A DNA stretch of 64,000 bases from a virus, in the IMG/VR virus record IMGVR_UViG_3300034782_000062, positions 64,001-128,000 of that record, one strand, 5' to 3'. Position numbers and translations under genes: made by a program. This document shows positions 4,248-20,973 of the stretch, piece after piece; the first letter of the stretch is position 1; each line of letters begins with the position of its first letter. The notes under the pieces were generated by a model. It was not told where the DNA came from. It did not search any database and worked only from the letters and a program-made list of their open reading frames with translations.

Positions 4248-5261
4248 ATGGCTAACGAGACAAACGGAACCGAGACCACCGAGGAGACCACCGAGGAGAC
4301 CACCGAGAGCACCCCCGAGATCGTTCATGTGATCGATCCCGAGTCTCTCGTCATCAAGTCGATTCTCCCCGGCATTCTCGTCAACCTGACCTGTCATATG
4401 CGGGGTGGGCGCGAGACGAAACGGGAGGACATCAAGGTCCGCAAGGGCAAGGGTGGTAAGAAAACCGAGACCTGGAAAGCAGTCCGCGTCATTTACGACG
4501 AGGACGAGCTAAAGCGGGCAGACAAAGAGCGGGCCAAGGTGCATCGTGACGTCAAAAAGCTCGGCTGCGAAACCGCCGTGGGGCTGATCGTCGCGGCACA
4601 CCGCAAGCAAGAGCTTGCGCAGACCCTCTCCGCTTGCCACAACCGGGTCAAGGCGTTCAACAAGACCGCTCAAACCATGGACCTCGTCTTTCGCTATGGT
4701 CTGTACAGTGTCGAGGGCAACAACAGCGGCACTATCGCGGCTGTCACCGAGCAGCTCGGCGACATCTTGGAGCGCGTCAATGGCGCAGTCCAGGCCGACG
4801 AGCAAGCGATCTTGGAGAACGCCCGCGCCAACCAGCTCGGCGACTTCAAGACCGCGAAAGAGGTCATGAAGGCCCCCCGCGAGCAGCGGATCGCCATCAT
4901 CGCCAAGATTCGGGCGGACCTCGCCCGCAAGGCGATCGCCGAAGCCAAGTCATTCTCCACTCTGCTCCCCGAAGAGGCCGGGCTCGCCGTGACCGACATG
5001 GTCGCTTCGATCCGCAAGTCGGCGACGGCTTGGGTCAAGGCGAGCAAGGAATCCGACGAAGAGTATGAGGCCGCGCTCAACACCGTGGACTCCGACATGA
5101 TCAGCGATATGCAGGCCGCGCTCGTCCAGGCGGCGGCACTCGCGGACCAGTCCGCCGAAGCCGAAACCGAAGCGATCGCCGACCAGGGCGACCTCTTCGG
5201 CGACGGCGAGGTGGAGGAGGAGATCGCGGGCGACGGCGACGACATGGTCGGCGCGATCTAG
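4248..5261 (+). CDS. Hypothetical helical protein, DUF3150-like
   Basis: SD AGGAGGG. The LVNLTCHMRGG...VIYDEDELKR...LGCETAVGLIV...ELAQ pattern resembles DUF3150 by eye only. Confidence 0.6.
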   Translation: MANETNGTETTEETTEETTESTPEIVHVIDPESLVIKSILPGILVNLTCHMRGGRETKREDIKVRKGKGGKKTETWKAVRVIYDEDELKRADKERAKVHRDVKKLGCETAVGLIVAAHRKQELAQTLSACHNRVKAFNKTAQTMDLVFRYGLYSVEGNNSGTIAAVTEQLGDILERVNGAVQADEQAILENARANQLGDFKTAKEVMKAPREQRIAIIAKIRADLARKAIAEAKSFSTLLPEEAGLAVTDMVASIRKSATAWVKASKESDEEYEAALNTVDSDMISDMQAALVQAAALADQSAEAETEAIADQGDLFGDGEVEEEIAGDGDDMVGAI

Positions 5262-18362: not shown

Positions 18363-18397
18363 GTCCTGGTCACTCTGAGAAAGTGGCCAGGGCTCCA
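18363..18397 (+). ncRNA. 35-nt minihelix-TCCA (class I) directly upstream of the cas12m SD
   Basis: 12-bp stem GTCCTGGTCACT/AGTGGCCAGGGC (2 G-U pairs); 7-nt loop CTGAGAA; then T-CCA running into AGGAGG. Confidence 0.7.
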
Positions 18398-18409
18398 AGG
18401 AGGCAACAA

Positions 18410-20146
18410 ATGTCCAGAACCATCGTTTTCAATTTTGGAGGCCGTGCACCAACAAAAAACGCACAGCTCGTTCATGACAACATCTACCACGGGCACAACT
18501 ACTACAATAAGCTCATCGAGCTAGAACGTTGTTACCGCAAGGCAATTCGCGCAGCCCAAGCCGAGTTCCCGGAGATCGCAAAAGCTCAGGCACTCTTCGA
18601 TAACGCTGAAGAGGCTGTTGACGGATTGATCGCGCTAAAAAAACTAGCCAAGTCAAGCGACTCAAGTATTACTCCACCAACGCCCGATGAAATGAAAAAG
18701 GCTGTTGCCGAAAAGAAGGCGGCGGCTGCAGCTCTCAAAGACGCCAAGGCCCCTCATGCTGATTCATTGCAAACCAAATACAAGGCAGCCAAGGATGAGC
18801 TAACGGCATCTATAAAAAAGGCTCGATCCGAGACCGAAACTTTCTGGGGAACCTATCTGTGCATCGAGCGAGCGTTTCAGCAAGCCAAGAAAGCAAAGCC
18901 TATTTTTAAGCCTGGCAAAAAGCGCCCCCCATGGACCGAACGGCCAGCGTGGCGAAAATGGACAGGCCATGGTGTTGTTGGCATGCAAATTCAGAATGGG
19001 ATGCCAGCAGAGAACCTGTTCAAACCTAACACGAGATGTTACATAGATCCCCTTCCAGCCAATGCGTACAACACGAACATTCCCCGTGGCCAACGCCGCA
19101 AGATGCAATACACAACCATCCATTTGCGCGTAGGATCTGAAAACAGAAAACCCATATGGGCTGACATCCCCGTTTACCTGCACCGGGGCTTTCCTGCTGG
19201 CGCGATTGTCAAATGGGTATGTGTTATCCGAACCCCATGGCATCAACATCAAGCCTACAAATGGCAGGTACAAATCACTCTTGAGGTCCCCGACGCTTTT
19301 CCAAAAACCAACAAAAAAGCCGTTGCCATTAATTTAGGTTGGCGCAAACTAGCCGATGGATCCCTTCGAGCAGCCACCTGGGTGGATACTGACGGTCAAT
19401 CGGGCGAGATTATTCTAAGCGACAAGGAATTCAGAGATCGTATTGAAAAATACAACAACCTACGATCGATTCGAGACAAACTGATCGATGAAATCCGGCC
19501 TAAGCTCATCATGTCCGGCATCAACTGCGCCAAATGGAAAAGCCCCGACTCTTTTCAAAAACTTTCTCGTCGCGAAGACTTAACCGACGAACAGAGCGCA
19601 ATTTTGAAACCCTGGGCCTACAAAGATAGGCATCTCAATTGGTATGCCCGTGGTGTAAAAAATGGCGCCCTAAACCACCGGCGCGATGTCTATCGAAAGT
19701 TCGCTCTTTACATAGCGACAAACTACGACATCATCATCGCCGAAAAATACGACATGAAGAACATTGTCGAAGACGAAGATCGGAAAAGAGGTCCAGCGGG
19801 TCAGCGGGTTGAAGCTGCCCCATCCATTGCCAGGCAGATCATCGGCAGCACCGCGACACGGCTCGGGTGTCACATTATCGAGGGCCAAACCACATATGCA
19901 ACCCAAGAGTGCTTTTTTTGCGGTTGCACAGAGCCATGGGATGCCTCTGGTAACATCATGCACACCTGCCAGGAATGTGGTGAACATTGGGACCAGGACA
20001 TCAACAATGCCAAGAACATGCTCGCGAGAGCCGCTGATGCAATCAACTCCCTGGACCCGCTCGCACCTAAAAAGTCAAAGAATTACGGATGGAAATCGGT
20101 ACAAGAAAAGAAAAAACAAGGAGATAACGAAGACCACACTGATTAA
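18410..20146 (+). CDS. cas12m: Compact type V CRISPR effector, Cas12m-like (578 aa), predicted nuclease-deficient
   Basis: Long N-terminal coiled coil; WED motifs W.D.PV.LHR.FP; RuvC-I AVAINLGWR (D->N); KWKSP; RuvC-II IIAE; Zn finger CFFC...CQEC; RuvC-III DQDINNAKNML; adjacent CRISPR array. Resembles recalled MmCas12m motifs (VALHLGWR, WKSP, YDQD). Confidence 0.85.
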   Translation: MSRTIVFNFGGRAPTKNAQLVHDNIYHGHNYYNKLIELERCYRKAIRAAQAEFPEIAKAQALFDNAEEAVDGLIALKKLAKSSDSSITPPTPDEMKKAVAEKKAAAAALKDAKAPHADSLQTKYKAAKDELTASIKKARSETETFWGTYLCIERAFQQAKKAKPIFKPGKKRPPWTERPAWRKWTGHGVVGMQIQNGMPAENLFKPNTRCYIDPLPANAYNTNIPRGQRRKMQYTTIHLRVGSENRKPIWADIPVYLHRGFPAGAIVKWVCVIRTPWHQHQAYKWQVQITLEVPDAFPKTNKKAVAINLGWRKLADGSLRAATWVDTDGQSGEIILSDKEFRDRIEKYNNLRSIRDKLIDEIRPKLIMSGINCAKWKSPDSFQKLSRREDLTDEQSAILKPWAYKDRHLNWYARGVKNGALNHRRDVYRKFALYIATNYDIIIAEKYDMKNIVEDEDRKRGPAGQRVEAAPSIARQIIGSTATRLGCHIIEGQTTYATQECFFCGCTEPWDASGNIMHTCQECGEHWDQDINNAKNMLARAADAINSLDPLAPKKSKNYGWKSVQEKKKQGDNEDHTD

Positions 20147-20209
20147 TCTCGGACCCGCTCGAAAAACGGCATATACTTCAACGAAAAGACAAGGCATTCT
20201 GACAGTGCC

Positions 20210-20922
20210 GTCACAAAGGCTATCTCTACAGCCTATGAGTAGAGACATGTAGACGCTTCGCAAACATTCTGTCCTCAAAGGGGTCACAAAGGCTATCTCT
20301 ACAGCCTATGAGTAGAGACAAGTTAGAATTCTTGATCAAAATGCTTCCATTGTTAAGGTCACAAAGGCTATCTCTACAGCCTATGAGTAGAGACGGATAA
20401 ACAGCATCGTAAACTCCACCCTCTGACAGGTCACAAAGGCTATCTCTACAGCCTATGAGTAGAGACAGGACGAGAGGCCGCTGAGGAGCGAGATGTGCGG
20501 GCACGAGTCACAAAGGCTATCTCTACAGCCTATGAGTAGAGACCGGAGCAAGCCCAGGATGTACTCGTGCTCGAAGGACGAAGTCACAAAGGCCATCTCT
20601 ACGGCCTATGAGTAGAGACATCGGTTGTCTTCCTCTGTAAACGATATTTCCCGTCCTGTCATAAAGGCCATCTCTACGGCCTATGAGTAGAGACACTGTA
20701 GAGTAGGGCAGTCCGGTTCCGTTAGCTACGTCCGTCACAAAGGCTATCTCTACAGCCTATGAGTAGAGACTTGCTCCATTCTGAACCGAACCAAACTTGC
20801 GCCTTGGTTGTCATAAAGGCCATCTCTACGGCCTATGAGTAGAGACAGCCCAACTTCAGCACTGGTTCGAGCCGCCGATAGGTGTGTCATAAAGGCCATC
20901 TCTACGGCCTATAAGTAGAGAC
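20210..20922 (+). CRISPR. CRISPR array: 10 repeats of 37 bp (GTCACAAAGGCTATCTCTACAGCCTATGAGTAGAGAC), 9 spacers of 35-40 bp
   Basis: Repeats start at 20210, 20283, 20358, 20430, 20507, 20583, 20658, 20734, 20810, 20886. The terminal repeat carries an extra G28A change, consistent with a leader on the cas12m side. Confidence 0.98.
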
Positions 20923-20973
20923 CGATAGAGATACGTCGACGCTGGGGTCACATAACAACACAGGAGGTACAAC

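Follow-up and report, generated by a model that had tools for sequence, protein, structure and literature searches.

The locus described here raises the question of whether a small CRISPR effector encoded by a phage, whose RuvC site reads Asn-Glu-Asp (N-E-D), still cuts nucleic acids or acts by remaining bound to DNA. The locus lies in a window of 64,000 nucleotides, corresponding to bases 64001-128000 of the 182,770-bp IMG/VR virus record IMGVR_UViG_3300034782_000062, and consists of a cas12m gene followed by a CRISPR array. The gene is an open reading frame (ORF) on the plus strand at 18410-20146, encoding 578 aa, with an ATG start codon and the motif GGAGG six bases upstream; a longer form starting from a GTG at 18383 is possible. 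A leader of 63 nt (20147-20209), in which a consensus scan revealed no sigma-70-like promoter, separates the stop codon from the first repeat, and the array (20210-20922, same strand) contains 10 repeats of 37 nt, ending in AC, with 9 spacers of 35-40 nt between them; the record has no other array of this kind. An initial annotation, made from the sequence alone, had described this arrangement, and its coordinates, protein length, 63-bp gap and number of spacers proved to be exact when ORF and array were re-measured. Judging from the sequence and by analogy with tested relatives, we consider it most likely, with a probability of about 0.75, that the locus blocks rival DNA by staying bound to it, without cutting.

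By sequence and by predicted fold, the protein is a Cas12m, the effector of type V-M systems. When it was compared by phmmer with the PDB chains, the best match was the Cas12m 23vw (E-value, E, 4e-54), aligned over the full length (residues 5-540), and the other Cas12m chains found were Cas12m2 (8hhl/8hio, E 4e-25) and GoCas12m (8pm4, E 9e-21); TnpB-like proteins and Cas12f appeared only at E 6e-4 or worse. The AlphaFold (AF2) model, obtained from 88 homologues, had a predicted local distance difference test score (pLDDT) of 93.3 and a predicted template modelling score (pTM) of 0.86, and it contains long REC helices (18-51, 54-81 and 92-141) typical of Cas12m. In a Foldseek comparison of this model with the PDB the top four matches were all Cas12m (template modelling score, TM, 0.63-0.69; E 4e-31 to 2e-23), and Cas12f and TnpB were far weaker (TM ~0.4, E 1e-13 to 1e-9). 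Since both the sequence and the fold matches put Cas12m ahead of TnpB and Cas12f, and the repeats carry a Cas12m-type handle, the initial annotation was right to see here a Cas12m-type effector with its own array. The sole Pfam domain, at residues 475-537, is the Cas12f1-like TNB zinc ribbon (PF07282), where the CxxC...CxxC finger can be read at residues 501-523 (C501-x2-C504 ... C520-x2-C523, 19910-19978).

The core made of RuvC and TNB is common to the window protein, to TnpB of the IS200/IS605 and IS607 families and to Cas12f. Ordinary TnpB was considered and rejected: the bit scores fell below the cut-offs of the NCBIfam models (NF040570, 52.6 vs 100; NF038281, 36.8 vs 425), the triad is N-E-D and not D-E-D, and the fold similarity is low, as reported above. 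A TnpB residing in an insertion sequence (IS) element with its omega RNA was also set aside, as an array adjoins the gene instead; the IS ends were not specifically searched for.

The characterised Cas12m proteins (MmCas12m2 8hhl/8hio, GoCas12m 8pm4, PmCas12m, MsCas12m and the 577-aa 23vw) have ~580-600 aa, like the window protein, and show the same architecture of WED, REC coiled-coil, RuvC and TNB zinc finger. Moreover, as observed here, they combine a non-canonical triad with a stem plus pseudoknot handle ending in AC, and do without trans-activating CRISPR RNA (tracrRNA) and adaptation genes. The differences concern the location, on plasmid or chromosome for the characterised proteins and on a virus for the window cas12m, the identity, which by structural alignment is only ~22% with Mm/GoCas12m, and the triad, which is H-D-D or N-D-D in the structures described in the Cas12m literature examined, with 23vw aligning as D-E-D, whereas it is N-E-D in the window protein.

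The handle of the repeat could be analysed in detail. In each repeat, which has AC as its last two bases, positions 8-12 pair with 21-25 in a stem of 5 bp, and the loop of this stem folds onto the repeat's 3' end (14-20 with 30-36) to give a pseudoknot of 7 bp. In numbering from the guide, these pairs are at -30..-26 with -17..-13 and at -24..-18 with -8..-2, which is the same register as in the CRISPR RNA (crRNA) of PmCas12m, with its pairs at -28..-26 with -17..-15 and -23..-20 with -6..-3 (bioRxiv 10.64898/2026.03.26.714355); the repeat also fits the triplex-pseudoknot handle of GoCas12m (PMC11013384). Covariation was evaluated on 10 repeats that came from five phage arrays associated with members of the window protein's clade: standard pairs made up 96.7% of the cells, with compensatory double changes in 9 of the 12 pairs, no shuffle matched the observed value, and sliding the partners by 1-3 columns brought the pairing to 39% or less. 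In the window array itself, a T>C change is matched by an A>G change in four of the ten repeats, so that the stem is preserved, and the repeat variants are interleaved.

The N-E-D reading of the RuvC triad given in the initial annotation was borne out by HMMER alignments, in which Asn308, Glu445 and Asp530 fall on the D, E and D of 23vw (the RuvC-I D being that of 'AIDLGW') and on His317, Asp485 and Asp579 of Cas12m2. The RuvC-I residue Asn308, which is Asp in nucleases, is encoded by AAT at 19331-19333, the RuvC-II Glu445 lies at 19742-19744 and the RuvC-III Asp530, in the motif WDQDINN, at 19997-19999, all on the plus strand. In a tree of 87 homologues the window protein belongs to a clade of 14 members with a support of 100 in the Shimodaira-Hasegawa-like approximate likelihood ratio test (SH-aLRT). 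All 14 members are N-E-D, though they are only 35-49% identical to the window protein, and their alignment shows 59 invariant columns, among which are the triad and three of the four cysteines that serve as zinc ligands.

The initial annotation had suggested that N-E-D could be an intermediate in the loss of catalysis. This explanation was rejected, because the triad is invariant in so deep a clade and had already been published: the triads recorded for Cas12m are HEK, HQK, HDD, DED, NED, DND and NDD, and N-E-D is among those of clades 3 and 4 (Wu et al. 2022, summarised by PMC10442227), which the window protein resembles in its triad. Thus N-E-D is a long-kept state of a stable lineage on phage-like contigs, and not a half-decayed nuclease. 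Changes of the RuvC-I residue are in fact commonplace in the family, since at least 18 occurred across the tree.

The possible function of such a site can be judged from the Cas12m proteins that were assayed. Those with D-E-D, H-D-D and N-D-D triads bind DNA without cutting it and are still protective against phages and plasmids (PMC11013384; bioRxiv 10.64898/2026.03.26.714355). In particular, the tested proteins, including four with D-E-D, do not cut double-stranded DNA (PMC11013384), Cas12m2 did not regain cutting when its H-D-D was converted to D-E-D (PMC10442227), and the N-D-D PmCas12m is nuclease-dead (bioRxiv 10.64898/2026.03.26.714355). The retained Glu and Asp, taken by the initial annotation as a sign of nuclease potential, are therefore a weak premise, while its proposal of silencing through DNA binding is still the best reading. 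In Cas12m2 the H-D-D site holds the displaced DNA strand via one Mg ion (PMC10442227) and, by analogy, we infer that the conservation of Glu445 and Asp530 is better explained by a comparable strand holding through a magnesium ion.

The gene is intact and preceded by a ribosome-binding site, which supports a function of the locus, and gene and array are included in a long run of ORFs on the same strand. Given this run and the leader devoid of a recognisable promoter, they would probably be co-transcribed with an early co-directional gene block. As expected from the family, Cas12m would then trim the array transcript to crRNAs made of a repeat handle of ~30 nt plus the guide, and the complex would find matching double-stranded DNA flanked by a protospacer adjacent motif (PAM) and stay bound to it, blocking transcription or replication of a target left uncut, as tested relatives suggest. 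The Asn-Glu-Asp site would most likely be a metal-dependent clamp for the displaced strand, like the His-Asp-Asp of Cas12m2, and not a nuclease; the targets would likely be phages or plasmids competing within the same host.

A number of points weigh against this explanation. No assay of any N-E-D Cas12m was found in the Cas12m literature examined, and PMC10442227 allows possible DNA cutting by clades 3 and 4. Moreover, none of the nine spacers could be assigned a protospacer and, with regard to the phage setting, no capsid, portal or terminase was recognised by PHROGs and Pfam among 14 large ORFs outside the window.

The speculation on DNA hydrolysis by clades 3 and 4 in PMC10442227 leads to the first alternative, namely that the N-E-D enzyme is still a nuclease, which might nick, act as a single-strand DNase or be an RNase that depends on RuvC, and that the targets would be destroyed and not silenced. 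Glu445 and Asp530 are invariant, the rest of the site is canonical and asparagine is able to bind a metal ion. By contrast, the lack of double-strand cutting in all tested Cas12m, the inert D-E-D rebuild of Cas12m2 and the nuclease-dead PmCas12m argue against it, and the loss of the RuvC-I carboxylate generally inactivates nucleases of the RuvC/RNase H fold; we regard a nuclease as improbable. It also appears doubtful that the N-E-D proteins are a virus-restricted Cas12m branch, moving between large phages as a cassette, in which the site performs metal-dependent nicking or the cleavage of RNA or single strands; if this were true, their mode of action would be unlike that of every Cas12m tested.

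The second alternative is that the locus is not a weapon but serves, like TldR or natural CRISPR interference, to regulate host genes or those of the phage itself in a programmable way. Effectors which only bind would suit regulation, and one viral relative offers a suggestive case. In L024 (IMGVR_UViG_3300048892_000198, 111 kb), a distant N-E-D relative, the third spacer matches the cas12m gene of the same virus at 36 of 38 positions (spacer/target pair 4632-4669 and 2948-2985), with mismatches at positions 6 and 28 and with 5'-TTC on the PAM side, which fits the TTN PAM of the family; in the related virus L023, the cas12m gene agrees with the same spacer at 27 of 28 positions. This spacer fits either the targeting of kin phages or autoregulation and, since it matches a cas12m, viral Cas12m arrays do hold phage-derived guides. 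In addition, repeat-like units are located upstream of cas12m in several viral relatives (L003:9720-9862, L011:4111-4277, L023:2818-2971) and may be regulatory guides, as in other CRISPR types. In the window virus, instead, no solitary repeat unit was found outside the array and none upstream of cas12m, no spacer had a match in the virus's genome even when up to 9 mismatches were allowed, and the seed matches were at the shuffled expectation; a regulator is, in our opinion, a poor candidate.

Further searches for the targets of the window array were negative as well. The whole array gave no target in GenBank phages and PLSDB plasmids, the exact 22-24-nt prefixes of spacers 1, 4, 5, 7 and 9 had no match in IMG/VR, and none was found for spacer 1 in metagenomes or for spacer 4 in species genomes; spacers 2, 3, 6 and 8 were compared with GenBank phages, PLSDB plasmids, the own genome and the fetched loci only. 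At the peptide level, the translated spacers gave one low-complexity match, no better than shuffled controls. These negatives are weak evidence, since the scans were made with exact prefixes and the individual collection scans covered spacers 1, 4, 5, 7 and 9 only.

It is very hard to believe that the locus is merely carried along without function or is a remnant in decay: its foreign composition, the lack of spacer targets, its interleaved repeat variants and the duplicated spacers of related arrays, the last two of which fit growth by recombination and not active adaptation, would agree with this, but the reading frame is intact, the invariant columns of the clade include the triad and most zinc ligands, the changes in the repeat stem are compensated and the design is kept in many viral contigs. 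Duplicated or near-duplicated spacers were observed in the viral Cas12m arrays L005:12091-12200, L020:5790-5901 and L023:5603-6150, which suggests that these arrays have grown through internal duplication or through recombination.

Profiles of Cas1 (PF01867) and Cas2 (PF09827), positive on control genomes, had no match in the whole record. Outside the array, the repeat was matched in the genome, on both strands, over 10-11 nt at most, which is the chance level, and Rfam had no match in the locus region, so that there is no sign of a tracrRNA; on the basis of the missing anti-repeat, a tracrRNA-dependent system was rejected. The initial annotation, which had reported no cas1, cas2 or tracrRNA in view, thus holds over the full record; the absence of adaptation genes is not peculiar to this phage, being the norm in V-U/V-M and in phage CRISPR loci (PMC11013384; PMC7162821). 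A structure-preserving pattern of the repeat found 0 matches in 185,579 species genomes, IMG/VR and JGI metagenomes, hence nothing supports a borrowed host adaptation module, and the recourse to host Cas1-Cas2 for new spacers that the initial annotation had proposed finds no backing.

The composition of the locus distinguishes it from its surroundings. The cas12m gene has a GC content of 0.495 and a GC content at third codon positions (GC3) of 0.525, to be compared with 0.57-0.63 and 0.70-0.86, respectively, in six neighbouring genes, and the low-GC island (18400-20950) matches the extent of the gene-plus-array cassette. The composition of cas12m does not differ from that of the neighbours in this way in five related phage contigs, and among related phages the position of cas12m relative to shared genes varies. 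Because those five contigs lack such a contrast and the position is variable, the import or replacement of the cassette in the window virus looks to be fairly recent, apparently from a lower-GC relative.

The viral location given in the initial annotation agrees with the IMG/VR record, for which CheckV estimated a completeness of 95%. We describe the locus as phage-encoded on the basis of the IMG/VR and CheckV classification, of the PHROG matches of the neighbours, which include a helicase, an exonuclease, a primase, ParB and an ATPase (the latter in 121 phage records), and of related viral records. The 14 large ORFs mentioned above matched, in PHROGs and Pfam, glycosyltransferases, methyltransferases and a helix-turn-helix (HTH) protein, and a single-sequence fold of a candidate capsid gene, with a pLDDT of 38, was uninformative. 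The contigs of all eight clade members that were looked up are phage-like, with dense and co-oriented small ORFs and lengths up to 178 kb, and one member, P0014, is found on two contigs that are IMG/VR records (113 and 178 kb); the nearest outgroups, P0015 and P0033, are also on phage-like contigs. Since the contigs L002 and L009 have four or five further genes in common with the window, they represent related phages.

A search of IMG/VR with the window protein alone found no close viral relatives. A profile scan with the clade alignment found six loci, with N-E-D relatives on viral contigs of 111-194 kb and arrays of 5 to ~29 repeats. The arrays of the relatives on phage-like contigs share the repeat design of the window, and plasmid-borne relatives, including the characterised Meiothermus Cas12m, are 24-28% identical to the window protein.

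The Cas12m family, its variable triads, the absence of adaptation genes and the presence on mobile elements and phages are already known. As early as 2020, huge phages were reported to carry type V-U variants, which nearly always lacked Cas1, Cas2 and Cas4 (PMC7162821), and a 2024 review describes V-M as enriched on plasmids and present in prophages too (PMC11656645). A 2026 preprint (bioRxiv 10.64898/2026.09.14.751636) describes MvCas12m of the myxophage MV-1, which, like the window effector, is phage-encoded beside a small array (8 spacers vs 9 here), lacks cas1, cas2, cas4 and tracrRNA, and has no protospacers found; MvCas12m, compared here by description only, has 610 aa and a D-E-D triad, vs 578 aa and N-E-D in the window. 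What is modestly new is how deep the N-E-D clade is and how phage-like its setting, together with the cassette-like composition that the locus has in the window virus. The locus does not overturn the current understanding, but it is a clean and compact example of Cas12m, and it supports the idea that large viruses carry CRISPR effectors that only bind, probably for competition among mobile elements, and swap them as cassettes. A naturally nuclease-free Cas12 of this size, as predicted for the viral branch, could also be of interest as a tool.

Some relatives differ from the window locus in the arrangement of their repeats. On the closest related phage contig (L002, protein P0003) there is no array beside cas12m, and a long and very degenerate array, with units of 27-57 nt, is located ~6 kb downstream, together with solitary units (L002:17862-20516, L002:12944-13075). 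P0012, which sits between tail-like genes, is directly followed by one repeat-like unit (L010:7797-7832). P0014 is flanked on both sides by 28-nt repeats with a spacing of 51-58 nt (L006:9746-10012, L006:11896-12537; also L019 and L022), which keep a single hairpin, itself ending in GAC, an unusually compressed array design. Finally, virus Rctr197k (KX853510.1), a 197-kb tailed-phage record, encodes a Cas12m homologue, Rctr197k_108, with 29.5% identity over 96% of the query and, unlike the window protein, a D-E-D triad; the gene carries no annotation beyond 'similar to transposase', and is directly followed by ~21 repeats of 36 nt ending in GAGAC, for which a CRISPR is annotated (KX853510.1, 110803-114219).

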